Below, piece by piece: positions 432-26,213 of a stretch of DNA of 64,000 nucleotides (positions are counted from its first letter, which is position 1; each line of letters begins with the position of its first letter). The translations under genes were made by a program, and so were the position numbers. Source of the stretch: Candidatus Latescibacterota bacterium (lineage in GTDB: Bacteria; Latescibacterota; UBA2968; UBA8231); contig CBDFJF010000002.1 of NCBI GenBank assembly GCA_965248265.1, forward strand, positions 1,091,044 to 1,155,043. Reading direction: 5' to 3'. A model generated the notes under the pieces. That model was not told where the DNA came from. It saw only the letters and a program-made list of their open reading frames with translations, and searched no databases.

Positions 432-1406
432 TCAAGAAATGGAGCCTCCGGCAACCCCGGGGCGATTCAGCGATCTGTCGTGCCCGACTGCGAGAGCAGG
501 GTCCATGCCGTGATACTTTACCGCCACCATGGCATAGAAAACCCCCGCATAGACCCCCACCTTTCTCACGCACTCGTACAGAATGTAGGCGCGGTACCGT
601 CCATCATTCTTGAGCACCCTCAAGAGATCGCGGAAATATTCCAGAAAAGACTGACGGCTCTTAGGAACTCCGTCATGGGGCATTTCATCCACCAGGTGGA
701 GAGCGAACCAGGACAGCGCCAGAAGCAGGATGCTGATCAGGTACACGGAGGCATAGTTGAGTGGAAAGGCGATTTGGGCCAGGAGCACTCCGACCACGGC
801 CGCCAGCGCCAACCCCATTCCGGCAGAGGCCGCGTGGCTGAAACCGAAAATCTGGCTGATGAGATTTTTCGGAACCGTCTCCGCGATCAGATCGAACTCG
901 GGGGCCATCATCAAGGTGATGGCGATGGAGCCGAAAAAACTCACGGCCGCGATGACGACAAGAGCTGTTGCCGGGCTTTCATGTCCGAAAAGAGCCAGGC
1001 TCGCGCAGACGAGCAGCAACGGTAGCCATTTGCACAGATCCAGATAGAGCAGCAGCCGTTTCTTCCGCCGCACCGTCTCGACCCTGTGTGCCGAGAATAG
1101 CTGCGCCAACTGGGCCAATCCCGGGACCATTGCGAGGATCCCCAGTACGGCAGGTTCGAATCCCAGGACCGTCACCAGCACGGCCAAAAAGTCGGTTCCA
1201 GTGATCACCCCGTAACCAGCGCCGCTAAAGCCGCTTCTGGTGATGTGACACCAGAAGTTGGCCCGGACAGGGTCGAGGCGCCGGTTGAGGTATTGTCGAA
1301 TTTTCCCGGTCATGGAATTCGAATATAGAGTGGTGGCACCCACCGCGGAGCTGTGAAAGCACACGCCAACAAGGGCAGCGATCGAACAGTTGGCCTTGAC
1401 GGGCAA
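432..1406 (-). CDS. MFS-type transporter (about 6-7 predicted TM helices). Its 3' end runs into the IS3 element, so the gene is probably disrupted.
   Basis: Hydrophobic helical segments such as [25 protein letters not shown] and [24 protein letters not shown]. The ORF's terminal residues lie inside the IS3 terminal region. Confidence 0.45.
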
Positions 1407-1516: not shown

Positions 1517-1561
1517 CCCTCTGGACGCGGACCTGATCGATGATCACGCCGGAGAGCACCA

Positions 1562-3109
1562 ATGATTCACGTTGACAGTGGCAGCCCCACCTTCTCCACG
1601 GACGAAGCCGTCCTCTTTCCCTTCGACGACTACAGCATCCCTTTTCGCAAGGACGTGCTGATGACGCTGGTGCCCGGCAGCAGGAAACCCGGCGATTACC
1701 GCGAGAACGCCAGCTACGAACCGAATCATCCAGGCGTACCAGTAATCGAGAACGGCCCGCCCGGTACGTGCGACTCGATGGAGATCGTCTTTCCGTCGAT
1801 CGCCCGCGTCGGCGATGAGCTGCGCATCTGGTACATGGCGCGCGGCAGTTCGGACGCGGATGCCGGGGACAACGAATGGGGCGGTGGAGGGGCGATCGAC
1901 CAGCACCGGCGCTACGCCTACGCCACCAGCAAGGACGGCGTCGAGTGGGAGAAACCCGATCTCGGCCTGGTTGAGTACAATGGCAACAAGCACAACAACC
2001 TCGTCGACGTCGATGGCGGCAACGCCTGGAGTGTCGCCTATGATCCCGATGATGAGGATCCGAAAAAGCGCTTCAAGATGATCAGCATGGGCGACGCGAT
2101 GCGGCTGCGCGTCCATTACAGCGCCGATGGTTTCACCTGGACGAACGGTCGCATCGTCGGCCACGGTATCGAACCGGCCGGTCCTCCGTTCAAGTTCAAC
2201 GGCTGCTGGTACGTCAACGGCCAGGGCGGGCCCGGTCCATGGAACAAGACGATCCCCCATCCCGTCGACGGGGCTTCGAAACGGGAAATGCTGACCTGGG
2301 CGAGTTACGACTTCGAAACCTGGACCCACGCAGCGGTGCCCAGCTTTCGCCGCGATCCGCAACCGCCGCGGCCGATACTGGATTTCGAGTGGCATCGCGG
2401 CGAGCAGGTGCACCAGGGCGCCCATCTGTGGGATCGGGGGAATGTCATCGTCGCCTTTTATGGTATGTACCACAACGACACCAATGACCGGTTGTTCGCC
2501 ACCATGGACCTGGGGCTGCTGGTCAGTCACGATGCCATGCACTTCCGCGAGCCGGTGCCGGACTTCAAGATCGTGCCCTGTTTCGAGGAGCGTGCGCTGC
2601 TGAACCCGGCCTTCGGGGACGGCCCAAAACTACTGCAAGCCGGCTACGCCAACATCGGCGAGCGCACCCTGCATTTTTATTCGACCTGGGAGTACCCGAT
2701 GCGTGGCATGGTGCGCATCGCGACCTGGCCCATCGACCGGCTCGGTTTCTTCTCGGCCGTGTCCAAACCGGTCTTTCAGGGCGAGGGCTACCGGGATGTA
2801 GCGGTGGAGCCCCATGTGATCTCCTGTCCGCTGCGTCCCGACAAAGCGGATGCGTGCATCTGGTTGAACGTCGACCGCCTCGGAGAGTACTGCCAGCTCC
2901 GGGTTGAGCTGCTCGATCTGGGATTTAACCCGATCCCCGGGTACTCAGGGGGTGATTGCATGGCGGTCGCTAAATCCGGGTTTCGACAGCGGGTTGCGTG
3001 GAAGCAGGGCGAGACCATTGGCCACTTCGATCACCCTGTGCGGCTGCGGGTCAACTGGGAAGGAATCCGGCCGGAGGATGCGCAGTTGTACGCGGCCTAT
3101 ATCGCCTAG
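1562..3109 (+). CDS. Beta-propeller glycosidase-like protein. It is paralog 1 of a four-member family in this window. The GH family is not assigned.
   Basis: Repeated blade-like motifs (DGVEWEKP, DGFTWTNG) and a C-terminal beta-sandwich-like tail. It shares about 50% identity with 8171-9658 (EAVLFPFDD / GDELRIWY / YATSKDGVEWEKPDLGLVEYNGNKHNNLV). Confidence 0.5.
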   Translation: MIHVDSGSPTFSTDEAVLFPFDDYSIPFRKDVLMTLVPGSRKPGDYRENASYEPNHPGVPVIENGPPGTCDSMEIVFPSIARVGDELRIWYMARGSSDADAGDNEWGGGGAIDQHRRYAYATSKDGVEWEKPDLGLVEYNGNKHNNLVDVDGGNAWSVAYDPDDEDPKKRFKMISMGDAMRLRVHYSADGFTWTNGRIVGHGIEPAGPPFKFNGCWYVNGQGGPGPWNKTIPHPVDGASKREMLTWASYDFETWTHAAVPSFRRDPQPPRPILDFEWHRGEQVHQGAHLWDRGNVIVAFYGMYHNDTNDRLFATMDLGLLVSHDAMHFREPVPDFKIVPCFEERALLNPAFGDGPKLLQAGYANIGERTLHFYSTWEYPMRGMVRIATWPIDRLGFFSAVSKPVFQGEGYRDVAVEPHVISCPLRPDKADACIWLNVDRLGEYCQLRVELLDLGFNPIPGYSGGDCMAVAKSGFRQRVAWKQGETIGHFDHPVRLRVNWEGIRPEDAQLYAAYIA

Positions 3110-3112
3110 CCC

Positions 3113-3850
3113 ATGCATCCCTTGCCCGCCGAGCACGAACTGGATGCCCACCTGCTGCGAATGCAGCTGCAGGGTTACACCCTGGTCCCCAGGGCTCTGG
3201 CGCCGGATCAACTCGCCCCCATTAGGGCCTGCTTCGACGAGCTGGTCGAACACCATCCGGACATCCCGACCGCAGTCTGCGACGAAGCCACCGGCATCGT
3301 CGACCTCAACCGCCTGTACGAACTCGATCCCGTCTTCGAGTGCCTGATGGACCTGCCCGCCGTTTTCTCGATCGCCCGTGCCGTCATGGACGATGATATC
3401 ACCTTGCTAGGCGGCTCCATCGGACAGTACGTACCCGCGAACACTCCCTCTCCCATGCACTGGCACGGAGACGGTGAGTACCTGCGGTTCACCTATATAC
3501 TTGACGACCTGGAGGAAAACGGCGGCGGCACTGCCCTGATCCCGGGGTCGCACCGCGTCGAGGGCCGCATCCCGGAGTGGTTCCACGCCCCGGGCGAGGA
3601 ACCACGTGAAATACCCGGCATGGTGTGCCTGGTCGCCCCGGCGGGATCATGTATGATCAACCATACCAGACTGTGGCACACCCGGTCCTCGAACCAGTCC
3701 GATCGCCCGCGCCGCACCATCTGGCAGGTCTTCAAACGCGCCGACCAGGCCTCAACCCAGAACGAGGCCCTGCGTCTCACCGAAGAGTACACGAAGTTGC
3801 AGACCGACCCCGGGCGCCGCGCTTTGATGGGGCTGGAGCCATTACCCTAG
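3113..3850 (+). CDS. PhyH-family Fe(II)/2-oxoglutarate-dependent dioxygenase
   Basis: Phytanoyl-CoA dioxygenase-like architecture. It has the HxD...H metal motif (WHGDGEY ... H at GSHR) and is about 245 aa. Confidence 0.6.
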   Translation: MHPLPAEHELDAHLLRMQLQGYTLVPRALAPDQLAPIRACFDELVEHHPDIPTAVCDEATGIVDLNRLYELDPVFECLMDLPAVFSIARAVMDDDITLLGGSIGQYVPANTPSPMHWHGDGEYLRFTYILDDLEENGGGTALIPGSHRVEGRIPEWFHAPGEEPREIPGMVCLVAPAGSCMINHTRLWHTRSSNQSDRPRRTIWQVFKRADQASTQNEALRLTEEYTKLQTDPGRRALMGLEPLP

Positions 3851-3871
3851 TTCGCCGCCGTTGGCGAAGCT

Positions 3872-4861
3872 TCACCGCATGCGGGATTCAGCCACCCACA
3901 TGTCAGCGTTGTCACCGATCGCCTCTTTGATCGGCTGGGTCAGGCGCTCCAGGTTGGCGGTGGTCTCAGCGCCCAGGTCCTGCGACAGCGAGGGAAGGTT
4001 GCCCTCGAGTTCCTCCGGAGTCCGTGCCCCGACCAGAAACGATGTCACTCCTGCCTGCTGTCTCACCCAGGCAAGGGCAACGCTTCCCATCGGCGCGCCA
4101 ATCTGCTCGCTCACTTCGCGAATGCCGGTGAGGGCGTGGAAGACGGCTTCTTCGCACCCGGACTCTCCGTGGTTCACCAACGGACGCGTAGTCGAATAAA
4201 ACCGAGTCCGCGCCAACCCTTCCGGCACCTCGTCGGCCGTGGCATATCGTCCCGTCAGCAGCCCCTGTGCCAGAGGGCTGTAGCAGATCAGCCCGATCTC
4301 CAGATCACGACAACGGGTCAGGATATCATACTCGATCGCCCGCCAGAGCAGGCTGTAGGGTAACTGGTTCGTCTGCACACGGCCCATCTTCAGATCGACC
4401 AGTTCGGCCAGATCATCGGAGCCGAAGTTGGAAACACCGAGGGCGCGCACCTTACCGTCCCTGACAAGATCTTCGAGTGCGCGCCACGAGGTCTCGATCG
4501 GGATTTTGTGATTCGGCCAATGGATCTGGTACAGGTCGATGTAGTCGGTCCGCAGATTCTTGAGGCTGGTCTCGCAGGAGGCGACGAGTCCGTCGGCCGT
4601 CAAGTCGCTCACCTTGGTAGCGATGATGGCCTGGTGACGCTTGCCTTCCAGGGCGCGTCCGAGAACCCGTTCGGAAGCACCCTCTTCGTAGCCTGGAGCC
4701 GTATCGAAGAAGTTGATGCCATGGTTCAGTGCCGTCTGCACCGTGGCAATGGACTGGACATCGTCCTGATCACCCCAGAATCCGCCACCGGCGAACGGCC
4801 AGCAACCCAAAGCCATCACCGAGACGTCGATATCGGTGCTTCCCAGTTTTCTGTACTCCAT
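3872..4861 (-). CDS. Aldo/keto reductase family oxidoreductase
   Basis: MEYRKLGSTDIDVSVMALGCW...GINFFDTAPGYEEGASERVLGRAL is a classic AKR N-terminus. Confidence 0.8.
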   Translation of the reverse strand: MEYRKLGSTDIDVSVMALGCWPFAGGGFWGDQDDVQSIATVQTALNHGINFFDTAPGYEEGASERVLGRALEGKRHQAIIATKVSDLTADGLVASCETSLKNLRTDYIDLYQIHWPNHKIPIETSWRALEDLVRDGKVRALGVSNFGSDDLAELVDLKMGRVQTNQLPYSLLWRAIEYDILTRCRDLEIGLICYSPLAQGLLTGRYATADEVPEGLARTRFYSTTRPLVNHGESGCEEAVFHALTGIREVSEQIGAPMGSVALAWVRQQAGVTSFLVGARTPEELEGNLPSLSQDLGAETTANLERLTQPIKEAIGDNADMWVAESRMR

Positions 4862-4932
4862 TATCGCATCTACGCCTATTGTATTTACGTCTTTGTATTT
4901 ACGTCTGTATTCGCCCTTATCGCATCTGCGCC

Positions 4933-5502
4933 TTACTGCATCTGCTCCTGGATCGCCTCGACGACGGCATCAGACAGGACTTCGTTGCCGAAGGCCGTCA
5001 TGTGGCATCCGTCGTTCTGTAGACACTTGGTGATGTCGTTGCGAACGATGACGTCGTGCAAGTCGTTTACGGGTACCCCTTCCCTCTGCACAATTTCGAG
5101 AGCGGCGGCATTGTACCTGTCGATTTCACTCGCCTCATCGATCGGCCACTGGGCCATGGGCAGGTCTGGATCACTGGTGTACAGGGGCGTGGTCGTAGCC
5201 CAGATCATTTTCGCTTTTGCGATATCCCTGACCTTGGCAATGAACCGCTGAACGCCGAGGCGGTACTGGGGGAGAAGAATCTGATGCTCTCCGTCAGACA
5301 GAAGCACGGCATCGTGGATGCCGAAGTTGACGTGGACCAGATCCGGCTCCTCGTCGACGACCCATTCCTTGCACCGGTCCAGCGCCCACACGCTGTGACG
5401 ACAATTCTGTACCGGTCCCCCCACATCGACGTCAGGGGTTTTTTTAATTACGAGAGACTGATACCCCATGCGGATGGAGTCACCAATCAAGACAACCTTC
5501 AT
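4933..5502 (-). CDS. SGNH/GDSL-family hydrolase (esterase)
   Basis: N-terminal GDSI motif (VVLIGDSIRMG) and a C-terminal DGCHMT motif (DxxH). Confidence 0.7.
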   Translation of the reverse strand: MKVVLIGDSIRMGYQSLVIKKTPDVDVGGPVQNCRHSVWALDRCKEWVVDEEPDLVHVNFGIHDAVLLSDGEHQILLPQYRLGVQRFIAKVRDIAKAKMIWATTTPLYTSDPDLPMAQWPIDEASEIDRYNAAALEIVQREGVPVNDLHDVIVRNDITKCLQNDGCHMTAFGNEVLSDAVVEAIQEQMQ

Positions 5503-5671
5503 GTCGACGAACTCCTCTCACTCTCAGGCCGATTGTGTTCAGCTCTATCATTGGTGAATGAGTATGGTTCGGCCATCGGGCCGTGTCGAGGGATGTCCTT
5601 GACTGCCGACCCGAGCGGCCCTTGTTTGTGACCCGAACCAGCAACCAGAGCGAGAAATGGAGAGAAGGCCT

Positions 5672-6496
5672 ATGCAACTGACCCAGCAACAGCTCAACCA
5701 CTTCGACACCTTCGGCTATCTCGCTTTCCCGGGGCTGCTCAAGGAAGAGATCGGCTGGATCTCGGAGGAGTTCGAGGACGTGATGGCGAACTTCGCCTCC
5801 GGCAAGGACCACGACGGCAGCACACGCACCATCATCATTCCCACGATCGATCACAGCGAACGATTATGCACGCTACTGGACGACGAGCGCATTCTCGGCA
5901 TCGCCGGTGCTCTGATCGGCGATGACTTCAACTACGGCTCCGGGGACGGCAATTTCTACAGCGGCAACACTCACTGGCATGCGGATGGCGGTTATCCCGA
6001 ACTGTTCGCCATCAAGCTGGCCTTCTATCTGGATCCGTTGACAGGGGGCAGTGGCAGCCTGAGGGTGATTCCCGGCAGCCACAAGGCCGACTCCATGTGG
6101 CGCACCGCCGGTCTTAACGCGAACGAGGCCGAAGAGCTGTGGGGTATCTCGCCGGCGGACATTCCGGGCAGTGTGCCGCTGCAGACTGACGCCGGAGACC
6201 TGGTGGTGTTCGATCACAGCCTCAAACACGCCTCCTTCGGCGGTGGTAAACGCCGGCGCATGTTCACGATGAACCTGCACAAGCGTGGCAAGACACCCGA
6301 AGAAATCGAACGCGTCGACACCTATCTGCAGCACCATTGTCCGGTCGCCGCCGGCTTCAAGATCGGCCACATGTACACGGACATCATGCTGGATACGGCG
6401 GGCCCGGGCCGGCTGGTGCATCTGGAACAGGCGTTCGAACGCCACGCCGTTGTACATCCCATCGATACCGTGCAGCGCCCGTTTCCCGGTCGCTGA
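5672..6496 (+). CDS. PhyH-family Fe(II)/2-oxoglutarate-dependent dioxygenase
   Basis: PhyH-like: HWHADGG...H. There is a good RBS (ggagagaagg) before the ATG at 5672. The ORF-track start at 5657 is an alternative. Confidence 0.6.
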   Translation: MQLTQQQLNHFDTFGYLAFPGLLKEEIGWISEEFEDVMANFASGKDHDGSTRTIIIPTIDHSERLCTLLDDERILGIAGALIGDDFNYGSGDGNFYSGNTHWHADGGYPELFAIKLAFYLDPLTGGSGSLRVIPGSHKADSMWRTAGLNANEAEELWGISPADIPGSVPLQTDAGDLVVFDHSLKHASFGGGKRRRMFTMNLHKRGKTPEEIERVDTYLQHHCPVAAGFKIGHMYTDIMLDTAGPGRLVHLEQAFERHAVVHPIDTVQRPFPGR

Positions 6497-6545
6497 AAGG
6501 GGAGTGGAACCGCTGGCGAATCTGCCGCAAGCGTTCGTCTAGCTT

Positions 6546-8168
6546 CTAGTAAGACCTCTTCGCGGTTATGGTAGCATCCCACCGGCGTGATATCAGATCA
6601 TCGATGACCGCCTGCCTGGCTGATTCCGTGCCAACCCGGTTGAGCGTCTGGACCGCGAAGAATCCCACTTGGCCAAAAGGGATCTGCAACGCATCGATGA
6701 GGGCCTCTTCGGAGGCCGCTGCCCCGTCGCCCAGCCTGGTGAGAGCCATGGCGGCGGTGACGTGGACGGCATCGGCGACGGTCCAACCCCAGTTCTTTTT
6801 CTCATCCCAGGCCGGGCGCTGTGCCCTCAGAAGACGGGCGAGCGCTTCGACCGGCGCATCTTTTTTTATAGCCCCCAGTGAATTTGCGGCCACGCGAATG
6901 ACGTAGTGCGACTCGTCCTGCAGCGAGGTTTCGAGCGCGGGCACGGCAGAAGCGGCCTCCGAATCCATTTCTCCCAGGGCGAACGCAGCATTCATGCGGG
7001 TCCATTCATGAGCAGAGCCGAGCAGCCCTATCAAAGGCTCGAGGGCCGGTGCACCTATGGTTCCCAGGGCGTAGGCGGCATCATGCAGCGTCATCCAGCG
7101 TGAATCAAAGTCGGGTGACTCCTCGCCACGGCTGGCGCGCTCACCGGATTGTTCCAGCAGACGGCACAGCGGATGGATCGCCGGCTCGCCGATGGATGCG
7201 AGGGCGTAGATGGCTGAAGTGCGCAGGGCCTGATGCGCCGTATTCAACAACGCCGAAAGCGCAGGAACCGCGGCCACCGCTTCAGGGCCCGCCGCCGCCA
7301 GCTCGGTCAAGGCGCGCAGCTTTTCTTCGACGGAGAGCTCGGCGTTGAGTGTTTCGACCAGAGCAGGGACGTTCGAAGACTCTGAGATGTCTGGGGGGAG
7401 TGAAACTGCTTTCTCACCGCAGTGCCAGTACCACATTGAGCGCCACGCCGGTTCCAGGTCGTATGGAGCGGTGATTTCTTCGGGCTGCTGCCATTCCGTG
7501 TCTTCGCAATCCCAGCTGGGCTGTCGCGGTTCTTGAGCCCGCATGAAGATGAATTTGATCATGTGGCGTGAACGATCCTGCATATTGACGCCGGCCGCAT
7601 GACCGATATCGAAGTGGGACAGGAAGACGAGCCCGGCTTTGCCGTCGACGGGAAGCACCCGGTTTCGATCTTCATCGGTGAGACGGTCGTGACACTGGGT
7701 GCCCGCCAACACATGGGTCGGTCCCATCTCGATTGGGGTGTCCTGAGAGTAATACATGATACGCGCGTAGCGGGTGCGGTGAGAGCGCGGTTGGCTACAG
7801 GGACTGTAGGAGTCCTGGTGGCACCCGCCGGAGACCGACTTTGCCACCTCGTCGCCAGATAGTGCGTCCTCGACGGGCTGCCGCATGTGCCAATAGCGGT
7901 GGGGGTGCCTGAAGTAATTCTCGCCCAGAACGCTGGTGAGCGCTCCTTGCACTTGCGGGCTGTTGAGGATCAGCTCCAGTTCCGGAATGCGAGGGATGAT
8001 GTTGTTGCCCGGATTGAACTCGTGCTCAACGATAAAATTGAATTTCTCATCGATGGTCCGATGGACTTCGTCAGGCACGCTGGGACGGAGAAGGAGGTAG
8101 CCGTTGGCGATGAACTGGCGCATCTGTTCGTCGCTGAGAAGGACGGGCTGTTGCGATTTGAGCCCCAC
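6546..8168 (-). CDS. Fusion protein: an N-terminal PhyH-family dioxygenase domain plus a C-terminal HEAT/PBS-lyase-type repeat domain
   Basis: N-terminal sequence LSDEQMRQFIANGYLLL...HQDSY...H (PhyH-like). The C-terminal half is made of repeated AxxALGxIG/AVPAL helical repeat units (AIYALASIGEPA, AAYALGTIGAPA, AAFALGEMDSEA, AANSLGAIKKDA). Confidence 0.55.
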   Translation of the reverse strand: MGLKSQQPVLLSDEQMRQFIANGYLLLRPSVPDEVHRTIDEKFNFIVEHEFNPGNNIIPRIPELELILNSPQVQGALTSVLGENYFRHPHRYWHMRQPVEDALSGDEVAKSVSGGCHQDSYSPCSQPRSHRTRYARIMYYSQDTPIEMGPTHVLAGTQCHDRLTDEDRNRVLPVDGKAGLVFLSHFDIGHAAGVNMQDRSRHMIKFIFMRAQEPRQPSWDCEDTEWQQPEEITAPYDLEPAWRSMWYWHCGEKAVSLPPDISESSNVPALVETLNAELSVEEKLRALTELAAAGPEAVAAVPALSALLNTAHQALRTSAIYALASIGEPAIHPLCRLLEQSGERASRGEESPDFDSRWMTLHDAAYALGTIGAPALEPLIGLLGSAHEWTRMNAAFALGEMDSEAASAVPALETSLQDESHYVIRVAANSLGAIKKDAPVEALARLLRAQRPAWDEKKNWGWTVADAVHVTAAMALTRLGDGAAASEEALIDALQIPFGQVGFFAVQTLNRVGTESARQAVIDDLISRRWDATITAKRSY

Positions 8169-8170
8169 GA

Positions 8171-9658
8171 TCAGCCTTCGTCGGCTACATACGCCGCGTA
8201 CAGAAACACATCATCCAGGCGCTCGCACTCGAGGTTGATACGCAACCGCAACGGGGCATCGATCCCCTCTACCTTCTGTTTTCCTTTCCAGGCAACGGGA
8301 GTGCGAAGGCCTTCCTCCGTCACCGGCAGACAGTCCTCCCTGCTATACCCGGGAAGCGGCCTCATCTGCTCATCCAGTATTTCCGCGCGCAGGGTGTTTT
8401 TCTCCGACAGTCCCTCGGCGTTGATGTAGACGGACCCTGATTTACCCTTCAGGTCGATGAGGCAGGAGATGAAGTGCGGGTCCGCGTACTCCGGTACCTT
8501 GTCGCCGATATGCTCCCGCCAGTACAACTGATGGGTATCCTCGCTCGGCTGCAGGTTGGGCTTGGGATCCGGCACTACTTCGAAGTACCCCAGACGGTCC
8601 CGGGGGAATCGCGCCACATTCAGATCGCCGCCGCGCCAGCTCGAGTACCAGAAGAGCGACTCGTCGCCGACGTTGGCGAAGCCCTGTCCCTGCTCCAGGG
8701 TCGGAAAATTCATCTCTCCACGCGCGATCTCGTAGGCCGGAATGAATCTGAAATCCGGGATCGGCTCGACGAAGTGCAGGGCGTCGTTGCTGACGACCAA
8801 CCCCAGATCCATGCTGATGAATTCACGATCATTCGACTCCCCGTGCCACATGCCATAGACGCCGATGATGACGTTGCCCCGGTCCCACAGACCGGCGCCC
8901 AGGTGAATCTGCTCGCCGGCGTGACAGCCGGGGATCTGCTTGTGGGGAGGCTGGTCGCGGCGCATGCCAAGGACGACGGCGTCACTCCAATTGTCGAAGT
9001 CGTATGAAACGAAGGTGACGAGGGCCCTCTTGGTGCCGACGTTGCCGCCCTGGCCGTTGAGGACATAACAACCATTGTATTTGATCAACCCCGTGGGCTC
9101 TACCGCATTGTGTTTGAGGATCGGGTTGTTCGGCCCCTCCTTCCAGTGCAGTCCATCCGGACTGTAGAGGACGGCGATGTAGTATGGGTGGAGCTCGATC
9201 ACCATCTTGAAACGACGCTCGGGATCCGGATCGTCCGCTTCGTACAGAACCGAACACGAGCCCGGATCACTGCCGAGATCGCAGTCGACGATGTTGTTGT
9301 GCTTTGAGCCGTTGAACTCGACCAAACCGAGGTCGGGTTTTTCCCAGTTGAGGCCGTCGGTGCTGACAGCGTAACAGATATGACCCTTCGCTCGCCCACC
9401 GGTCTCCACCCCATGACCCCTGTACCACACCCGCAGCTCATCCCCGACCTGGCAGACGGTACCGTAGTATGCGATGGCCTGCCCGTCAGGCGCTTCCGGC
9501 TCGCCCCGTTTCATGGCGATGAGGTGGCCCTTGTAGGGGTTGAGGCCCTCCACGAGACCGATCTGCAGTCGGTACCTGAACGGGATGGTACGGTCGTCAT
9601 ATGGGAACAACACCGCTTCGCTGACATCCACTGCTGGTCCACCGTTCAAAACGAGCAT
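8171..9658 (-). CDS. Beta-propeller glycosidase-like protein, paralog 2
   Basis: About 50% identical to 1562-3109. Shared motifs: YAVSTDGLNWEKPDLGLVEFNGSKHNNIV, GDELRVWY, C-terminal LYAAYVA. Confidence 0.5.
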   Translation of the reverse strand: MLVLNGGPAVDVSEAVLFPYDDRTIPFRYRLQIGLVEGLNPYKGHLIAMKRGEPEAPDGQAIAYYGTVCQVGDELRVWYRGHGVETGGRAKGHICYAVSTDGLNWEKPDLGLVEFNGSKHNNIVDCDLGSDPGSCSVLYEADDPDPERRFKMVIELHPYYIAVLYSPDGLHWKEGPNNPILKHNAVEPTGLIKYNGCYVLNGQGGNVGTKRALVTFVSYDFDNWSDAVVLGMRRDQPPHKQIPGCHAGEQIHLGAGLWDRGNVIIGVYGMWHGESNDREFISMDLGLVVSNDALHFVEPIPDFRFIPAYEIARGEMNFPTLEQGQGFANVGDESLFWYSSWRGGDLNVARFPRDRLGYFEVVPDPKPNLQPSEDTHQLYWREHIGDKVPEYADPHFISCLIDLKGKSGSVYINAEGLSEKNTLRAEILDEQMRPLPGYSREDCLPVTEEGLRTPVAWKGKQKVEGIDAPLRLRINLECERLDDVFLYAAYVADEG

Positions 9659-9888
9659 CTGTCTGTGACTCCTGGTTTCGCAGGTGTGCTGAGTTCGGGC
9701 AAACGGTTGCGTTTCGTCCTCTCACGAGCAGCAGAATAACCTTCTGCTCCGCAGCGGGGTCAACCATCCGGTTGCTACCCGCGCCACGCGTACTAGGCGG
9801 ACGGTGGGCGCGAATGCAGGGGAAATTAGCTACATTCCGCGCCGGAAAACGACCAGAACACAGGTGAGTTACGCGAAAGGGAAGGGCC

Positions 9889-11739
9889 ATGAAGACGATC
9901 GAGTTTGCCGGCCGAACCACGCCCCCCGAATGGGCGGTACGACAGCGCCATCTAATCGACCAGATGAATCGCGCCGCGCCCAGGTTTGTAGAGCGCTACA
10001 CCCGGCCCGACGGCACCCTCATCTGGCGCGATGAGTGGCCGGGGATGGATGGCTCCGACGACGGCTACGAGAGCTTCCTCACCTTTCCCCTGTTCTACAT
10101 GCTCGGCGGCAATGAGGAGATCCACACCATGGCGCGGCGCCTGTGGAGCGCGGTGACCTGGCAGTTCACCGAATACGGTACCGTGACCCGTGAGTTCGCC
10201 CGCCACTACGACTGGATGCACCACGGGGAGGCCTACACCTTTCTCCACTACTTCGGTCTGGCCGATCCCGATTGCCATGTCGATCGCCAGCGGGCCCTGA
10301 AGTTCGCGGCGATGTACATGGGTGAAGATCCGCAGGCACCCAACTGGGATCCGGAACACAAGATCATCCGCTCCCCGATCAACGGCGGTGCCGGCCCCTG
10401 CTTCGAGATGACGGCCGAGGACTGGCTGACCCACCGTATCAACCTGGCGCGCTACCTGTCGCCGTACGAAGATATTGAGGGCCTCGACAGCTCGGACCCC
10501 TTCGCCGCAGCCGACTGGGCGGACGACGCCATGTTTGCCAAGGTCCTCAAGCTGATGAACGAGCGCATGGTACCCGGCGACGTGCCGCTCAACCTCAACG
10601 CCACCAGCCTGATCGCCAACGCCTATCTGTATACCGGCGACGACAAGTACAAACAGTGGATCACCGACTACGTCCAGGCCTGGATGGATCGCGCCGAGGT
10701 CAACGGTGGTCTCATTCCCGACAACGTCGGTCCCACCGGCAAGATCGGCGAGCGCATGGGCGGCAAGTGGTGGGGGGGCTACTACGGCTGGCGCTGGCCC
10801 CACGGCGGCTGGGTCATGCTCGAGGCCATGTGCAACGCCGGCTGCAACGCCACCCTGTTGACTGGTGACCCCTCCTGGTTGGACCTGTTCCGCTCTCAGG
10901 CGGACAAGCTGTGGGAAATGCGGCGGGAGGAAGACGGACAAATCATGATCCCCAACAAGCACGGCGACCAGGGTTGGTTCGAATACACCCCGCACGCCGA
11001 GAGCCATACCCTGCGGCTGCTGATGTACGCCTACGCCGTCGGCCGCCAGCAGCAGGACCTCGACCGCATCGAAGAGCAGTACGGGGACCGGCCGCTGCCG
11101 CGGGATTTGCCCCTGCCCGGTTGCAGCAAAGCGGGCAACTTCCACATCCACGACTGGTTCGAGTACACTGTCGGTCGCAACCCGGAGTTTCCCGAGCGCG
11201 CTCTGGAAATCACCCAAGTCGAGATGCGCCAACGCCTGGAAGTCATCGATTCGGAGACCCTGGACTGGACAACCTGGCGCGACGTGCAAGACTGGCAGGA
11301 CGTCCACCACTGGCAGTCGATCAACCCGGTGGTTCCCGAGGGCATCATGCAGATGTCCATGGGCACGCCCACGGCGGTCTATCACGGCGGCATGGTGCAC
11401 GCCGCGCTGCGCTATTTCGACCCGGTAGATCGACGGCCGGGACTGCCTCCGCACCTGTCCGCTCTGGTCGATGAGGTTGAGACCGACCACATATGCGTGC
11501 ACCTGGTGAACACGGACATTCTTGAAACGCGGGAGGTGATCCTGCAGTCCGGGGGGGTTGCCGAGCACGAGTTCGGGGAAGTGCGCCGTGACGATGGCGC
11601 CGCCGCGCCGGTGGCCGTCGATGAGCGCCACCTACGGGTGCGCCTGGGACCAGCGACGCAGGTGCGGCTGCACATCGGCCTGAAACGGCTGGCGCACAAG
11701 CCGACCTACGCACGGCCGGACTTTGGGATTACCAAATAG
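9889..11739 (+). CDS. Conserved hypothetical 616-aa protein, possibly an alpha/alpha-barrel carbohydrate-active enzyme. A truncated, frameshifted paralog lies at 49503-50617.
   Basis: One long ORF with a good RBS. Paralogous fragments elsewhere in the window confirm it is a real gene family. Function is not assigned. Confidence 0.5.
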   Translation: MKTIEFAGRTTPPEWAVRQRHLIDQMNRAAPRFVERYTRPDGTLIWRDEWPGMDGSDDGYESFLTFPLFYMLGGNEEIHTMARRLWSAVTWQFTEYGTVTREFARHYDWMHHGEAYTFLHYFGLADPDCHVDRQRALKFAAMYMGEDPQAPNWDPEHKIIRSPINGGAGPCFEMTAEDWLTHRINLARYLSPYEDIEGLDSSDPFAAADWADDAMFAKVLKLMNERMVPGDVPLNLNATSLIANAYLYTGDDKYKQWITDYVQAWMDRAEVNGGLIPDNVGPTGKIGERMGGKWWGGYYGWRWPHGGWVMLEAMCNAGCNATLLTGDPSWLDLFRSQADKLWEMRREEDGQIMIPNKHGDQGWFEYTPHAESHTLRLLMYAYAVGRQQQDLDRIEEQYGDRPLPRDLPLPGCSKAGNFHIHDWFEYTVGRNPEFPERALEITQVEMRQRLEVIDSETLDWTTWRDVQDWQDVHHWQSINPVVPEGIMQMSMGTPTAVYHGGMVHAALRYFDPVDRRPGLPPHLSALVDEVETDHICVHLVNTDILETREVILQSGGVAEHEFGEVRRDDGAAAPVAVDERHLRVRLGPATQVRLHIGLKRLAHKPTYARPDFGITK

Positions 11740-12121
11740 ATGAAACGTGAGGGTAAGACAGGATCTTGTCGTCTGCCGTCAGGACCGACATGCGGTGTAA
11801 CCTCGCAGTAGCCGTGATGAAGCGGTCTGCCGGATCCCGGTGGTAACTGCCAGGAAGGGAGTACGCTTCCTGAATGATGGCCACTCCAATGTCGATGACC
11901 CACCATTGGTTCAGTCCAATTACATCGTCGAACCATACTTTCCAGTGTCTGTCCAGGATGATGCGTTGGCGCTCAGCAAGACAGGCGACCTCTGCGCAGC
12001 TGATGGCGGAGACGTGGACCTCGGTGGTGTCCGATTCCAACGCTTCGATCGCGGCGGGACTCAGCTTATCCGGATCGGACGCAGCCCAGATAACGCAGCA
12101 TGTGTCGAGCAGGATCTTCAT
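11729..12121 (-). CDS. vapC: PIN-domain toxin (VapC-like)
   Basis: MKILLDTCCVIWAASDPDKL... The N-terminal Asp of the PIN domain (ILLDTC) and a size of 130 aa fit VapC. An antitoxin gene lies immediately upstream. Confidence 0.7.
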   Translation of the reverse strand: MKILLDTCCVIWAASDPDKLSPAAIEALESDTTEVHVSAISCAEVACLAERQRIILDRHWKVWFDDVIGLNQWWVIDIGVAIIQEAYSLPGSYHRDPADRFITATARLHRMSVLTADDKILSYPHVSSIW

Positions 12122-12127
12122 TTCACC

Positions 12128-12373
12128 TCACACATCACTCCCAAGCATGTCCCAATCATCCTCGGGCATAGCGGGAGCGGTCAGATCGCCTTTGACCTTA
12201 ACGCTTCCCTTAAACGAGCCCAGTTGGGTCTTGTTGGTGGGCGCCTTGGGCAACGGTACAATGCGTGCAAATGGCACGTTCCGTTTGGCGACCTCAACCG
12301 TTTCTCCATTCTCAACCAGCCTCAAGTAATCGCTGAGGTGGTTCTTGAGCTCGGCGATGTTGGCGGACTTCAT
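12128..12373 (-). CDS. Type II antitoxin (Phd/YefM-like), partner of VapC
   Basis: MKSANIAELKNHLSDYLRLVENGETVEVAKRNVPFARIVP is a Phd/YefM-type N-terminus. It is 81 aa, with 6 bp between it and the toxin. Confidence 0.65.
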   Translation of the reverse strand: MKSANIAELKNHLSDYLRLVENGETVEVAKRNVPFARIVPLPKAPTNKTQLGSFKGSVKVKGDLTAPAMPEDDWDMLGSDV

Positions 12374-12414
12374 CGGCGGACTCTCCTCGCAAGGTGTTGG
12401 AATATAATATTGGC

Positions 12415-12455
12415 CAACTATATGGCCATATAGTAAGCCATAAATATGGCCATGT
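12415..12455. promoter_or_regulatory. Putative operator/promoter of the antitoxin-vapC operon. There are two copies of the ATATGGCCAT palindrome in an AT-rich stretch.
   Basis: tatatggccatatagtaagccataaatatggccatg lies just upstream of the antitoxin start at 12373. Confidence 0.4.
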
Positions 12456-12742
12456 CAATGCACCCAACTCAACGAGGCGTAAAAAGACCCTCAATAGTTC
12501 CTACGCCATTGTCCCAAAGCGGGCAGGAAGCCGATGCGCTTCTACCGACAAACAGCACAAGCACTCCTGCAGTGTTGATCTGCACACGCGCACGATGTAC
12601 GTGTGCATCCTGGACCCGTACGGACTCTCCAAATTGTTCATCGTCCATCGCAGCGCCGGCGCAACCCGTCCACCCTGACGCGTGGCGTCAAGGCCATTCC
12701 GTTAGATCGCCTCAAGGAACTCTGGCAGGACTGAGTTGGATT

Positions 12743-12784
12743 GGGCCCGAGAAGATGCCCAGACGCTGCAGGCCGGCCATGCGG
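12743..12784. repeat. Imperfect direct repeat (copy 1) flanking the AbiE module. It is homologous to 14330-14381.
   Basis: ggcccgagaagatgcccagacgctgc...aggccggccatgcgg matches ggccagagaggatgcccagacgctgc[11-bp indel]aggcctgccatgcgg. Confidence 0.6.
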
Positions 12785-13582
12785 TTATTCCAGGATCTGG
12801 GTCAGATGCTCGGTTGTCAGTAACTCGGCGTCGGATGGATGCTGCAGGAACGGCGCCACATCCTCGCGCAACCTGACGACATCGTGACCCGCCAACTTGG
12901 AACGCACCAGGTCGGGCCATCGGTGCGCCTCATGGTGGCCGACACCTTCCGTCTGATCCAGTGCTGCTTGCAGCAACTGGAGATTGGGCTCGACACGGGG
13001 CGAACGGGAACGGTACCACAGCAAATCGTACCAGTCCCTGCCCTTCGGGTACTCTCGCACGATCAGTGCGTGCACCTTACCAGCCATCAGTGACGGCAGG
13101 TCGTGATGGCGGAAGGCCACCAGGAAGTGTCGATTGACGACGCGGTTTTGGGTGACGGCCCCATCAGGGGGCACCGTGTCGATCTCGACTTTGACGGACA
13201 GCTTCTGATCCGCTAGAGGCGACAGCCCGCACTCTTCCAGCAGGCTGGCTATCCGCACCCAGCCCACGTGCACTGTTTTGCGGTCATTCCATGTGACGCT
13301 CACGTCAAAGCCGGCGCGAGTGAGATCCGTTTCAAGTCCGGTGCGCCACGACGCCGGGTCGTACGCCTGGGCGGACTCGACCGAGAAATCGAGATCCTCA
13401 GAGAATCGCTGTAAGTCGTACAGAAAGCGCAAGGCTGTGCCGCCGACAAAGGAGAGGGCTTGAAAGGCCTGTCCCTCGTGCAGGGATCGCAAGACGGATG
13501 CCTGGGCGTACTCGCGCAGCAGGTTGAGTCGCGTCACAGGGTCGTCCACGCTTCGGGCCAGTTCCAGTGCACGTGCCTTCAT
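12785..13582 (-). CDS. abiEii: AbiEii-family nucleotidyltransferase toxin (type IV TA, DUF1814)
   Basis: FVGGTALRFLYDLQRFSEDLDF motif (GG[T/S] ... DLD). It is 265 aa and overlaps the upstream AbiEi gene by 4 bp. Confidence 0.65.
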   Translation of the reverse strand: MKARALELARSVDDPVTRLNLLREYAQASVLRSLHEGQAFQALSFVGGTALRFLYDLQRFSEDLDFSVESAQAYDPASWRTGLETDLTRAGFDVSVTWNDRKTVHVGWVRIASLLEECGLSPLADQKLSVKVEIDTVPPDGAVTQNRVVNRHFLVAFRHHDLPSLMAGKVHALIVREYPKGRDWYDLLWYRSRSPRVEPNLQLLQAALDQTEGVGHHEAHRWPDLVRSKLAGHDVVRLREDVAPFLQHPSDAELLTTEHLTQILE

Positions 13583-14217
13583 GCGCTGTCCTCAAAGGCT
13601 TCGTCCTCAACCAACCGCAGCCAGCGTGCAGCGGCGCGGCCCAGTCGTGGCGATTGGCAACGCTCGACGTATTCGTCCAATCTCGAGGGGTTCACGAGTC
13701 CTACCTGCTGGAATCGCATTTCCAGCAGCCGGTCTTGGCTCCACTCTCCAGAGTTGAGGTGCCACAGATCCAGCAGGGCCTTCTCAGGCTCGGCGATAGA
13801 AAAGGCCACACCGTCAATGGTCCGAGTCACCGATCCCCAGAACAGACTCTGTTTGAGACTCGAATAGGTGAACATTCCGACCGCGTTTTCGAACTTGCGC
13901 GTGACGCGCGGGGTGACGCTCTGGTAGGCCGCAACGGCGTCGGGTAAGAGTCCGTAAAAGCTCAGGGCCCACAGACAACTCAGGTAGGACGGCCGGTACA
14001 TCTCATTGGCCACCTGGACGGGGGACAGGGCCGTCCTGCGATAGACATGACCGATCGAGTAGAGACCACGCCTCAAAGGAATGAGCTTACCACTACCGAT
14101 CCAGCGAGAAAGCTGAGCCCTTACCTGCGGTCGTGGAGCAGCCGACAGCTGCACAGCCGTGGCAAGGTCGAACAGGGCTTGGTCGCCAAGCTCCTCGAGT
14201 AAGGTGAGCCATTTCAT
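13579..14217 (-). CDS. abiEi: AbiEi-family antitoxin / transcriptional regulator (wHTH)
   Basis: Start MKWLTLLEELGDQALFDLATAVQLSA...RWIGSGKLIPLRRGLY, a winged-HTH N-terminus. It overlaps abiEii in an operon. The ORF-track start at 14361 is unlikely because it runs into AT-rich DNA. Confidence 0.55.
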   Translation of the reverse strand: MKWLTLLEELGDQALFDLATAVQLSAAPRPQVRAQLSRWIGSGKLIPLRRGLYSIGHVYRRTALSPVQVANEMYRPSYLSCLWALSFYGLLPDAVAAYQSVTPRVTRKFENAVGMFTYSSLKQSLFWGSVTRTIDGVAFSIAEPEKALLDLWHLNSGEWSQDRLLEMRFQQVGLVNPSRLDEYVERCQSPRLGRAAARWLRLVEDEAFEDSA

Positions 14218-14219
14218 TT

Positions 14220-14285
14220 CTTTTAATATACATAAATAATTTATAACTGAAACAATTACGTCGAATTCGATTTCCAAAACGAATG
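14220..14285. promoter_or_regulatory. AT-rich putative promoter/operator region of abiEi
   Basis: The base composition drops sharply (tcttttaatatacataaataatttataactgaaacaattacgtcgaattcgattt). There is a cgaattcg palindrome. Confidence 0.35.
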
Positions 14286-14286
14286 G

Positions 14287-14455
14287 CGAGCGCGGTTCCG
14301 AGCGCCAGACCCCCCATGAAGCTGGACAAGGCCAGAGAGGATGCCCAGACGCTGCTGCCAAAGGTCAGGCCTGCCATGCGGAAGAAAAGGGTCTCGAAAA
14401 TCAAACCCGCGGCGCCCGACAGGAAGAACGCCAGGCAAAGCAAGAGCTTCGTCAC
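14287..14455 (-). pseudogene. N-terminal fragment (about 55 codons) of a membrane protein gene. It is translationally coupled to the upstream metallophosphatase gene and truncated where the AbiE module begins.
   Basis: MTKLLLCLAFFLSGAAGLIFETLFFRMAGLTFGSSVWASSLALSSFMGGLALGTALA, then the frame runs into AT-rich non-coding DNA. The ATG at 14455 overlaps the stop of 14452-16410. Confidence 0.5.
14330..14381. repeat. Imperfect direct repeat (copy 2), inside the coding sequence of the truncated membrane-protein gene
   Basis: See copy 1. About 41 of 45 aligned bases are identical, plus an 11-bp indel. Confidence 0.6.
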
Positions 14456-16410: not shown

Positions 16411-16546
16411 AACAAAATACGCACAGGATCCCCACGTCGGAAACCGTGGATGCGGACACGGCCTGACGGCACAGCTTGGAGATCACCGCGGCGTGCAATA
16501 CCCTTTTCGTGGTCGCCACTTCATGAATCTGAATCACGAGGGACGG

Positions 16547-18538: not shown

Positions 18539-18552
18539 TCCAAGCGGCGCCG

Positions 18553-18891
18553 TCACGGCCGGACCCTGACGAGCCTCTGCAGAAGCACCTCCTCGATGTC
18601 CCGGCGGCCGTCGAAGACCGCGAGCACCGTGACGCGGTCATCATCGACACGATACATCATTCGGTAGGGTCGAACGACAAGCTCGCGGAATGTTTGGATC
18701 CCGAGCCCGGCCAACTCGGGGACAACACGGCCACGCTCCGGCGACTTTTCGAGTCGGGCAGCCCGCTCTCTGAGCTTGCGCAACACTTTCCTCGCGGTGA
18801 CCGGCGAGTCAGCAGCTACGTAGGCGACGAGCTCCTCCAGGTCATGGGCCGCAGCGCGTGCCCAGATCACGAGGTAGCGTCGCTCAGGCAT
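18553..18891 (-). CDS. ParE/RelE-family toxin
   Basis: 112 aa: MPERRYLVIWARAAAHDLEEL...RVTVLAVFDGRRD. The antitoxin gene overlaps its start. Confidence 0.6.
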   Translation of the reverse strand: MPERRYLVIWARAAAHDLEELVAYVAADSPVTARKVLRKLRERAARLEKSPERGRVVPELAGLGIQTFRELVVRPYRMMYRVDDDRVTVLAVFDGRRDIEEVLLQRLVRVRP

Positions 18892-19177
18892 CGTGATCCG
18901 CTCTCGTAATCGTCTCCTCGGCGGCGTCGAACGCCTCTTCCTGGGGAATGGTGTGGCCAGCGTCGACGTCGGCCTGAGCGTGCGCTGCCAACCTCAGCAA
19001 GGCCATTGCCTTGCGCCAGGCGTCGTAAGTCTCCACCCCCATCACGGCAACCTTGGCCTCCCCGTTCTGGGTGATTATCACGGTGTTGCCGCTCTCCGAA
19101 ACCTGGCTCACGAGATCGGCTGTCTTGTTCTTCAGATACGTAATCGGCTTGATCTGCGCCGTGAAATCCATGGACAC
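18884..19177 (-). CDS. Phd/YefM-family antitoxin
   Basis: NTVIITQNGEAKVAVMGVETYDAW fits the Phd/YefM family. It is 97 aa and overlaps the toxin by 8 bp. Confidence 0.6.
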   Translation of the reverse strand: MSMDFTAQIKPITYLKNKTADLVSQVSESGNTVIITQNGEAKVAVMGVETYDAWRKAMALLRLAAHAQADVDAGHTIPQEEAFDAAEETITRADHDA

Positions 19178-19190
19178 CTCCCTCGAGTAT

Positions 19191-19224
19191 ATAGGTCAGA
19201 ATATAGCACGTAATTATGACCTAT
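19191..19224. promoter_or_regulatory. Perfect 8-bp inverted repeat ATAGGTCA-N18-TGACCTAT next to a TATATA box. It is the putative operator of the parE/phd operon.
   Basis: Read directly from the sequence. It lies 14 bp upstream of the antitoxin start. Confidence 0.45.
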
Positions 19225-19446
19225 GCAAAACCGGCAACGTATCATCCGGCGCAGGACCCGATCACGAGGGGCGTGCTGTCGCAGCGGGCAAGACCCACGA
19301 GGTTTCCAAGAAAGAGTTTGCACAACACACGATGTTAAAAAGGCCAGGGACTCCACGGGAGATTGCCGCGTGAGTTCTGTTCCTGGCTTCTGACGAGGCG
19401 TCATTCGTCACCGGCTCCTGCCTGTTTGCCGACGGTGGCCAGACGG

Positions 19447-24527: not shown

Positions 24528-26213
<1,686 letters not shown>

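Follow-up and report, generated by a model that had tools for sequence, protein, structure and literature searches.

An unnamed family of glycoside hydrolase-like propeller proteins recurs beside PhyH-family oxygenase genes in Candidatus Latescibacterota and other bacterial lineages

We analysed a stretch of 64,000 nucleotides (the window) from a Candidatus Latescibacterota bacterium (GenBank assembly GCA_965248265.1, contig CBDFJF010000002.1, positions 1,091,044 to 1,155,043 of the forward strand; GC content ~61% along its entire length), and in particular a 10-kb gene cluster at 1562-11739 that holds two paralogous propeller genes and three genes of the PhyH family of Fe(II)/2-oxoglutarate (2OG) dioxygenases. 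Two results are new: an unnamed glycoside hydrolase (GH)-like family, for which we use the working name PROP, is recurrently paired with PhyH genes, and an oxygenase carrying a HEAT-repeat domain (PhyH-HEAT) turns out to be an abundant architecture. The expansion of PhyH in such lineages was already known. We tentatively read the cluster as one for cytoplasmic oligosaccharide or glycoside processing in a marine Latescibacterota-type heterotroph, in which the oxygenases would remove decorations.

RESULTS

PROP and PhyH genes of the window

The gene list was checked by a listing of open reading frames (ORFs) and by Pfam and NCBIfam scans, and all nine genes named in the original prediction lie where it had placed them. 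Its start codons match JGI gene calls on a 92%-identical contig, including the call for PhyH-2 in the contig denoted L085. The PROP and PhyH genes are as follows.

1562-3109, plus strand: PROP1, 515 aa, five-bladed beta-propeller (predicted) with a C-terminal all-beta domain; no Pfam or NCBIfam match
3113-3850, plus strand: PhyH-1, Fe(II)/2OG dioxygenase; PF05721, 46.7 bits
5672-6496, plus strand (longest ORF from 5657): PhyH-2, Fe(II)/2OG dioxygenase, a separate transcription unit; PF05721, 54.0 bits
6546-8168, minus strand: PhyH-HEAT fusion; PhyH 25.2 bits and HEAT_2 79.4 bits
8171-9658, minus strand: PROP2, 495 aa, paralog of PROP1; no Pfam match
22193-23773, minus strand: PROP3, a distant paralog with no adjacent PhyH gene; BLASTP to PROP4, E 8e-29, and a match to the PROP hidden Markov model (HMM)
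33204-34655, minus strand: PROP4, 25-32% identity to PROP1 and PROP2, E 1e-14; sub-threshold GH32N match
34839-35687, plus strand (longest ORF from 34470): PhyH-4, divergent from PROP4; PF05721, 47.6 bits

Of the four PhyH genes, three directly adjoin one of the four PROP genes, and comparison with random gene orders of 50-65 genes gives p ~0.005-0.01 for this adjacency. The gap between PROP1 and PhyH-1 is 3 bp, an operon-like arrangement, and that between PROP2 and the fusion gene downstream of it is 2 bp, PROP2 being predicted to be translationally coupled to the fusion gene. The fourth PhyH gene had been described as sitting next to another glycosidase-like paralog; it does, although PROP4 is a distant one.

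Proximity of PROP and PhyH genes in other genomes

A scan of one genome per species provided 79 PROP loci with 10-kb flanks, which span Latescibacterota, Poribacteria, Acidobacteriota, metagenome-assembled genomes labelled Gemmatimonadaceae, Verrucomicrobiota, Planctomycetota and Lentisphaerota; the Latescibacterota homologs reach 74% identity, with many paralogs per genome. Neighbour counts were based on HMM-defined PROP and PhyH ORFs. The PhyH model was iterated until it converged at 67 ORFs, in agreement with the precomputed Pfam calls in locus L001, and its counts were used instead of those from single-sequence phmmer, which under-detects these genes (8 loci). PhyH ORFs were found in 38 of the 79 loci (19 of 52 after 90% dereplication), and PhyH is the commonest neighbour family of PROP, with at least 34 loci vs 16 for the next family.

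Moreover, 24 PhyH genes were observed within 2.5 kb of PROP vs 14.9 expected under random placement (p ~0.0005), a test that loses power under harsher dereplication, too few loci for significance remaining after single linkage at 60-75% identity. The density of PhyH genes decays with distance from PROP, from 8.1 per 100 kb at 0-1 kb and 7.5 at 1-2.5 kb to 2.4 at 2.5-5 kb and 1.9 at 5-10 kb, and is thus about fourfold higher within 2.5 kb than at 5-10 kb. Direct PROP-to-PhyH pairs with gaps of 0-4 bp occur in several distinct orders (L008-L010, L019/L021 and L025/L031/L035), and gene orders vary among the Latescibacterota, Gemmatimonadaceae-labelled, Acidobacteriota, Lentisphaerales and Poribacteria loci. 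All PROPs that directly adjoin a PhyH gene are without a signal peptide. The expectation that PhyH genes accompany the glycosidase-like genes elsewhere is borne out at the level of families, by neighbour rank and distance decay, and fails for the exact cluster, which was found only in strains of ~92% identity.

Other recurrent neighbours of PROP are 2-Hacid_dh, sulfatase, MR_MLE, BNR_2 (BNR/sialidase-like), GHL6/GHL10, Ldh_2, GFO_IDH_MocA and MetE-like genes, and dehydratases and dehydrogenases of sugar-acid type recur among them. Judged from these family assignments, the neighbours appear to form a guild of sulfated-glycan and sugar-acid type.

The PROP family has a glycoside hydrolase-like fold

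PROP1 and PROP2 are 39.9% identical over 537 aa (BLASTP, E 1e-118). A word-indexed search with PROP1 returned 453 homolog clusters, all annotated as 'hypothetical' and none with a Pfam domain, and an exhaustive profile search found 839 PROP representatives (at 50% identity) at E<=1e-30. An AlphaFold (AF2) model of PROP1 from an alignment of 36 diverse members reached a predicted local distance difference test score (pLDDT) of 85.9 and a predicted TM-score (pTM) of 0.86, and the predicted fold is the five-bladed beta-propeller of GH130. When this model was searched with Foldseek, the top 50 PDB matches were all five-bladed glycoside hydrolases or phosphorylases, with GH130 mannoside phosphorylases/hydrolases first, followed by GH43, GH32 and GH137. 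Matches to GH130 (7fir, 7fip, 9gph, 5a7v and others) had a probability of 1.00 and E-values of 5.5e-10 to 1e-8, with TM-scores of ~0.62-0.65 normalised to the targets and a sequence identity of 12-14%.

Searched against PDB sequences, the PROP profile matched only chains of GH130/GH117/GH32 type (E 2e-5 to 1e-3; best GH130 2.3e-5), and these matches rest mainly on the repeated blade motif; single-sequence phmmer against PDB gave nothing usable. Neither PROP1 nor PROP2 matched a Pfam or NCBIfam model, and PROP4 weakly matches the GH130 phosphorylase model (6e-6; 25.8 bits vs a 450-bit cut-off). PROP4 is also the only one with similarity to Glyco_hydro_32N (17.8 bits vs 22.1). Membership of GH32 was tried and rejected, the alignment by hhalign with the true GH32 of the window having a probability of 0.3%. 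Thus, the description of these genes as propeller glycosidase-like holds for the fold, where both Foldseek and the profile hit only GH-type proteins, and does not extend to any GH family model.

Across the 36 diverse members, D22, D71, K172, E204, R241, H284, R292, R310, D316 and E330 are invariant, as is Y300, and the alignment to GH130 covers blade motifs only. D71, E204, D316, R241, H284, R292 and R310 are candidates for a central acid/anion-binding site. Longer members are fused to CBM4_9, to GH115_C with a ConA-like domain, to an SGNH esterase (P0405) or to alpha/beta-hydrolase domains; a Rosetta-stone search among the 150 best PROP representatives found no PROP-PhyH fusion. Hydrophobic N-termini of Sec/TAT type are present in ~40% of the listed homologs, and PROP1 has no signal peptide.

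Because its structural and profile matches are to glycoside hydrolase-type proteins only, and its domain fusions are of the type found in carbohydrate-active enzymes (CAZymes), PROP is very probably carbohydrate-active, and the possibility that the paralogs fall outside this class altogether found no support in fold or fusions. The family lies outside current family models and is a candidate CAZyme family.

PROP genes also form arrays of five to six paralogs in ~20 kb (L010, L025, L031, L035, L041, L051 and L056), found in Latescibacterota, Verrucomicrobiota and Tepidisphaeraceae loci, a pattern like that of glycoside hydrolase or sulfatase expansion.

The four PhyH oxygenases retain their catalytic residues

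The three PhyH genes predicted in the cluster and the fourth at 34839-35687 all encode proteins that score, with the values listed above, over the 22-bit gathering threshold of PF05721. In a four-way alignment the HxD...H iron triad and the 2OG-binding Arg are kept in all four, the HxD motifs reading HGD, HAD, HCD and HQD, and the window oxygenases look active from these residues. The nearest solved proteins are SnoN/SnoK for PhyH-1 (E ~0.008), the ectoine hydroxylase EctD for PhyH-2 (E 5e-4) and a leucine hydroxylase for PhyH-4 (E 7.5e-5), and the N-terminal domain of the fusion finds PHYHD1 as its nearest match (E 0.19). SnoK and SnoN tailor the sugar moiety of nogalamycin. These relatives are too remote, and therefore no reaction or substrate can be transferred from them.

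PhyH-HEAT is a widespread architecture

The fusion protein consists of an N-terminal PhyH domain (residues ~1-235) and a C-terminal HEAT/alphaRep-like solenoid (~265-540). HEAT_2 scores 79.4 bits vs a threshold of 27.7, and in the AF2 model residues ~265 to 535 form paired helices, mostly at a pLDDT of >90. Modelling of the fusion, which had been proposed, gave a confident structure for the whole chain (pLDDT 92, pTM 0.92), and from this pTM the HEAT solenoid is predicted to hold a fixed pose relative to the oxygenase domain. Residues H117, D119, H190 and R201 are invariant across 39 fusion homologs. In Foldseek, the C-terminal part matched alphaRep/armadillo designs and the N-terminal part SptF/FtmOx1; phmmer also matched the designs, and no solved chain among the matches of either search covers both the PhyH and the HEAT part.

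The original prediction had called this architecture uncommon, which is refuted by 385 fusion homolog clusters, the best 120 of them nearly all full length at 44-100% identity, and by a metagenome scan in which 181 fusion coding stretches were confirmed, many of them on contigs from the marine water column, among which is a TARA scaffold. A literature search for PhyH-HEAT found the architecture undescribed. The fusion is thus a conserved and widespread marine family that is undescribed in the literature searched.

Two JGI contigs (L085 and L086, ~92% nucleotide identity) carry the same cluster with whole-gene indels, and both keep the PROP2-fusion pair with its 2-bp coupling. Among 35 metagenome loci of >8 kb with a fusion gene, PROP was found only in L139, in the order PROP then fusion as here, and in L110; in eight poribacterial loci a distance of ~5.5 kb separates the fusion from a PROP gene. 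In the two closest relatives the fusion is accompanied by a sulfatase, GFO_IDH_MocA, DHDPS, a PROP and additional PhyH genes, and in one Latescibacterota genome housekeeping genes surround it. Most frequent among its neighbours are PhyH, Ldh_2, SGSH-type sulfatase, 2-Hacid_dh, BNR_2, SDR, GH4 and MFS genes. The link of the fusion to PROP is occasional.

On marine metagenome contigs, fusion paralogs also occur in tandem arrays of three to four (L110, 771-7450; L130, 1-5374), and in L110 a PROP gene comes directly after the array. Elsewhere, PhyH islands of five to six separate genes lie within 8-10 kb, upstream of the fusion (L098/L099, 1613-9925; L139, 1-7946); in L098, GH4 is part of the island and the fusion has an MFS gene downstream of it.

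Other genes of the cluster and of the second locus

The remaining genes of the cluster, and those beside PROP4 and PhyH-4, are as follows.

483-1313, minus strand: MFS transporter remnant, residues 1-277 of a 419-aa MFS_1 protein with its 3' part replaced; no Pfam match for the window ORF
3872-4861, minus strand: aldo/keto reductase (AKR), co-directional with the SGNH gene; PF00248, 223.9 bits
4933-5502, minus strand: SGNH/GDSL esterase, small, cytoplasmic; PF13472, 40.3 bits
9889-11739, plus strand: DUF8034 protein, 616 aa; its 96%-identical homolog P0243 carries PF26099
30320-31876, minus strand: true GH32, co-directional with PROP4; Pfam GH32N/GH32C
31880-33292, minus strand: MFS transporter, co-directional with PROP4; Pfam MFS_1
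35691-36611, plus strand: AstE/AspA-family deacylase, 3 bp after PhyH-4; AstE_AspA_cat, 77.5 bits

Gene spacing in the cluster suggests five transcription units: PROP1 with PhyH-1, SGNH with AKR, PhyH-2 alone, PROP2 with PhyH-HEAT, and DUF8034. A scan of the window for consensus promoters and terminators gave counts no better than chance. No cluster protein has a signal peptide, and the cluster is cytoplasmic. The PF00248 match of the AKR spans profile positions 2-288 of 291, with a sub-threshold YdjG-like similarity as its only NCBIfam match. In the SGNH protein the GDS motif stands at residues 7-9 (MKVVLIGDSI), Lipase_GDSL_2 scores 40.3 bits vs a threshold of 32.9, and the gene encodes a putative sugar O-deacylase.

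PF26099 is found, in precomputed calls, on P0243 and on all 120 listed homologs of the DUF8034 protein; this model is absent from the Pfam copy used to scan the window protein, which accordingly gave no match. Searches of PDB by single sequence and by profile found no relative of the protein, and a literature search on DUF8034 returned nothing relevant. Its homologs occur in none of the 79 PROP loci. The protein is highly conserved, yet it is not a conserved partner of PROP. Long antisense ORFs opposite DUF8034 (9952-11631, minus strand, 559 aa) and opposite PROP1 (1544-2542, minus strand, 332 aa) are high-GC artefacts, of a kind typical of DNA with 60% GC, which misled a simple longest-ORF caller in related loci.

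DISCUSSION

A proposed route and its precedents

In the route that we propose, a small glycan fragment would be imported, the flanking MFS gene being truncated here and intact in a close relative, and would be cleaved by the two PROP paralogs acting as five-bladed-propeller glycosidases or phosphorylases, with acyl groups stripped by the SGNH esterase. The PhyH dioxygenases, two of which would be co-transcribed with PROP, would oxidise the carbon that bears a blocking decoration, which may be an O-methyl ether, with formaldehyde released, or a sulfate or other ester, with an aldehyde left. Removal of the decoration would let the glycosidase act, or let its product enter central metabolism, and the AKR would reduce the resulting aldehyde or keto-sugar. 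The HEAT solenoid of the fusion would be a fixed arm, probably enlarging the substrate-binding surface for a longer ligand or docking a partner protein. That PhyH acts on a sugar, the reaction it would perform, and the roles given to the AKR and the HEAT arm are what we infer here.

That PhyH enzymes can strip a decoration from a sugar has a direct precedent in FJS, PHYHD1 and one poribacterial homolog, which take the O-methyl group off the ribose of 2'-O-methyl nucleosides (Stonkus et al. 2025, PMC12709175). The window PhyH proteins have PF05721 and the Fe(II)/2OG chemistry in common with these enzymes. However, PHYHD1 is detected only by the N-terminal domain of the fusion (E 0.19) and by none of the other window PhyH proteins, the substrate is a free nucleoside and not a glycan fragment, and no PROP partner has been described. 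A search for literature linking PhyH to glycan loci or polysaccharide-utilisation loci (PULs) found none.

For PROP, the closest comparison is GH130, together with GH117, GH43 and GH32: the five-bladed propeller is common to them and the PROP model, the PROP profile weakly matches GH130 and GH117, and the C-terminal all-beta domain gives PROP a layout similar to that of the two-domain GH32 and GH43 enzymes. The PROP copies here share a cytoplasmic location with many GH130 and GH117 enzymes. PROP differs from GH130 in being a separate family with its own invariant residues, 12-14% identity and no model match at threshold.

The cluster resembles the PULs of Bacteroidota in grouping glycosidase-like, esterase and transporter genes, and sulfatases occur in the vicinity, both in the window (at 56610-58049) and in related loci. 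It differs in having no secreted enzymes and a gene order that is unconserved beyond close strains; SusC/SusD and TonB-dependent receptors were found in none of the Pfam-scanned window ORFs. Because SusC/D and signal peptides are absent, the cluster is not a PUL in the Bacteroidota sense. The earlier proposal of a glycan cluster with oxidative tailoring is partly supported: it is consistent with the gene context, with hydroxylation, demethylation and desulfation as candidate reactions, and has to be qualified by this departure from a Bacteroidota-type PUL, by the restriction of the exact cluster to close strains and by the lineage-wide richness in PhyH.

Lineage-wide PhyH expansion

In Poribacteria no domain family is more abundant than PhyH, which accounts for >1.9% of genes vs <0.05% in other genomes (PMC3909097), and the functions of the poribacterial PhyH proteins are mostly unknown, with one phosphonate (PhnY-like) case (Kamke et al. 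2014, PMC3909097). Like these genomes, the window belongs to an uncultivated marine lineage of glycan degraders and is very densely populated with diverse PhyH genes, and homologs of both PROP and PhyH-HEAT were found here in one conserved poribacterial neighbourhood. The earlier work describes neither linkage to a GH-like family nor a HEAT fusion.

Several observations weigh against a glycan-processing role. PhyH is hugely expanded across these lineages, as seen in Poribacteria (PMC3909097) and in PhyH islands without PROP; such islands are common, the 568 kb surrounding fusion homologs holding 48 extra PhyH genes, with PROP in just two of the 35 loci. About half of the PROP loci, including nearly all of those in Verrucomicrobiota and Planctomycetota, have no PhyH within 10 kb, and neither do the closest PROP1 homologs (70-74% identity, L003-L007). 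Where PROP has PhyH partners in other genomes, these are only 22-35% identical to the window PhyH proteins, and the link is therefore one between families and not between orthologs. Taken together, the PROP-PhyH link is family-level and not obligatory. No window PhyH is tied by sequence to a characterised reaction, with best PDB E-values of 7.5e-5 to 0.19. PhyH-4 is predicted to be co-transcribed with the deacylase that follows it, whose sub-threshold similarity to the ectoine-degradation enzyme DoeB points to an amino-acid-type substrate rather than a sugar. PhyH-1 is missing in the 92%-identical relative, where 30 bp (L085 4060-4089) stand in place of window 3106-3863, and the flanking MFS gene is truncated here after residue 277, with 419 aa intact in L085.

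It is possible, if doubtful, that the cluster reflects a lineage-wide expansion of PhyH in catabolic islands, with non-carbohydrate substrates such as phosphonates, branched lipids, osmolytes of which ectoine is an example, or amino acids that derive from collagen-like peptides and are hydroxylated or N-acylated, and that proximity to PROP is a matter of co-abundance. Besides the poribacterial gene share, the phosphonate case and the PhyH-dense, PROP-poor surroundings of the fusion, this explanation draws on the ectoine and leucine hydroxylases as nearest solved relatives of PhyH-2 and PhyH-4, on the DoeB-like deacylase directly after PhyH-4, on the S9 and S15 prolyl-type peptidases in the window, and on the region being a mosaic of strain-specific indels. 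Ldh_2, MR_MLE, DHDPS and FAD-oxidase genes are among the neighbours as well, and these also suit hydroxyproline or amino-acid routes. For at least some PhyH copies, the deacylase, the nearest relatives and the peptidases favour this explanation. However, simple co-abundance does not predict the ~fourfold decay of PhyH density with distance from PROP, and it is further opposed by PROP-to-PhyH operon junctions of 2-4 bp (here and in L008-L010, L025, L031 and L035), by the rank of PhyH as by far the commonest PROP neighbour, and by the recurrence of the pairing in differing gene orders in several phyla. Both the decay and the junctions count against PhyH expansion being the whole story.

A wider form of the glycan-processing reading can be put forward as a speculation that is rather unlikely as it stands: PROP and an adjacent PhyH would form an unrecognised two-enzyme module, in which oxidative de-blocking (of O-methyl, sulfate or similar groups) is followed by cleavage by a new GH or phosphorylase family, the PhyH expansions of marine Latescibacterota, Poribacteria and relatives would largely be a toolkit for glycan de-decoration, and the HEAT-fused form would serve longer or protein-bound substrates. 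If the link is functional, it gives a concrete handle on the abundance of PhyH in Poribacteria and similar marine heterotrophs, unexplained since 2014, and, PROP being absent from family models, the glycan-degradation potential of these phyla has been under-counted; PROP comprises hundreds of clusters at 50% identity, occurs in tandem arrays with as many as six copies, and has secreted as well as cytoplasmic forms. If the link is co-abundance only, what remains is an ordinary flexible catabolic island of a lineage rich in PhyH. PhyH-HEAT is an abundant, confidently modelled and undescribed 2OG-oxygenase architecture.

Alternative roles for the fusion and for PROP

AspH and collagen prolyl 4-hydroxylase combine a double-stranded beta-helix oxygenase with an alpha-solenoid of TPR type that is able to present a large substrate, and the fusion, too, joins an oxygenase to an alpha-solenoid. 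PhyH-HEAT might by this analogy be a protein- or peptide-modifying hydroxylase whose repeat arm binds a protein substrate, unrelated to the adjoining glycan genes, which we consider improbable. A HEAT/alphaRep solenoid is a typical protein-binding scaffold, the pTM of 0.92 implies an arm fixed beside the catalytic domain, the neighbourhood of the fusion is variable (down to the housekeeping genes around it in one Latescibacterota genome), and the family forms tandem arrays of its own in L110 and L130. In contrast to AspH and collagen prolyl 4-hydroxylase, the fusion carries HEAT/alphaRep repeats, belongs to the PhyH subfamily and has a gene context that indicates no protein substrate, its commonest neighbours (PhyH, Ldh_2, SGSH-type sulfatases, 2-Hacid_dh and BNR_2) not being protein-modification genes. 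Moreover, the 2-bp coupling to PROP2 kept in L085/L086, the PROP-to-fusion order in the distant L139, the PROP gene after the fusion array in L110 and the distance of ~5.5 kb to PROP in eight poribacterial loci all speak against this role.

Finally, it is very improbable that PROP is not a glycoside-cleaving enzyme and instead a lectin-like binder or another enzyme class on a five-bladed propeller, in which case the glycan reading fails: the lack of a matching GH family model, the modest TM-scores and identities to GH130 and the dependence of the PDB profile matches on the blade motif would allow for it, and it is opposed by the uniformly glycoside hydrolase or phosphorylase character of the top 50 structural matches, the CBM4_9, GH115_C and SGNH fusions typical of CAZymes, the many invariant Asp, Glu, Arg and His residues in 36 diverse members, and the sulfatase, BNR and GHL neighbours.

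Strain differences and minor observations

The AKR, SGNH and DUF8034 genes were not found with PROP in loci at <=70% identity. The cluster is a strain-level mosaic of recurrent family-level pairings, and its conservation as an operon does not run deep. PhyH-1 fits tightly between the stop codon of PROP1 and the 3' end of AKR, and its presence here and absence from the ~92%-identical relative is a difference of exactly one gene; this indel is an example of rapid PhyH gene flux. With the intact MFS protein of L085 as query, tblastn matched residues 1-277 only (98% identity, encoded from 1313 down to 483); DNA homology to L085 ends at window ~484, and the leftmost 483 bp are unrelated, with an ORF at 23-409 without a family match.

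Window 11740-19453 (7.7 kb) is absent from L085 and looks like a strain-specific insertion. It contains an AbiEii toxin/AbiEi antitoxin pair (12785-14361, minus strand), a 652-aa metallophosphoesterase, an S9 prolyl-oligopeptidase-family protein with PD40 repeats and an orphan 197-aa ORF. A second strain-specific insertion, also absent from L085, is window 26288-30334 (~4 kb), between an ordinary GroEL gene (24531-26213) and the GH32 gene; on its minus strand lie a gene for a 555-aa protein with metalloprotease-like, TPR and ASH/Ig-like domains (26473-28140) and a 473-aa orphan ORF without a family match (28150-29571). Conversely, L085 carries genes for a 670-aa protein (11839-13851) and a GMC oxidoreductase (17320-18888) that are absent here; the former overlaps the DUF8034 stop codon by 4 bp and the latter adjoins the PROP3 ortholog.

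At the second locus, a UxuA-like mannonate dehydratase follows the deacylase (35691-37632 together). Its longest ORF overlaps the deacylase by ~190 nt, and its start is therefore probably further downstream. A second DUF8034-like sequence at 49527-50617 (minus strand) is split over three frames (tblastn pieces 262-339, 342-492 and 498-610), and represents a frameshifted pseudogene or else an error in the assembly; a gene for a Y2-type transposase lies near it at 46849-47757.

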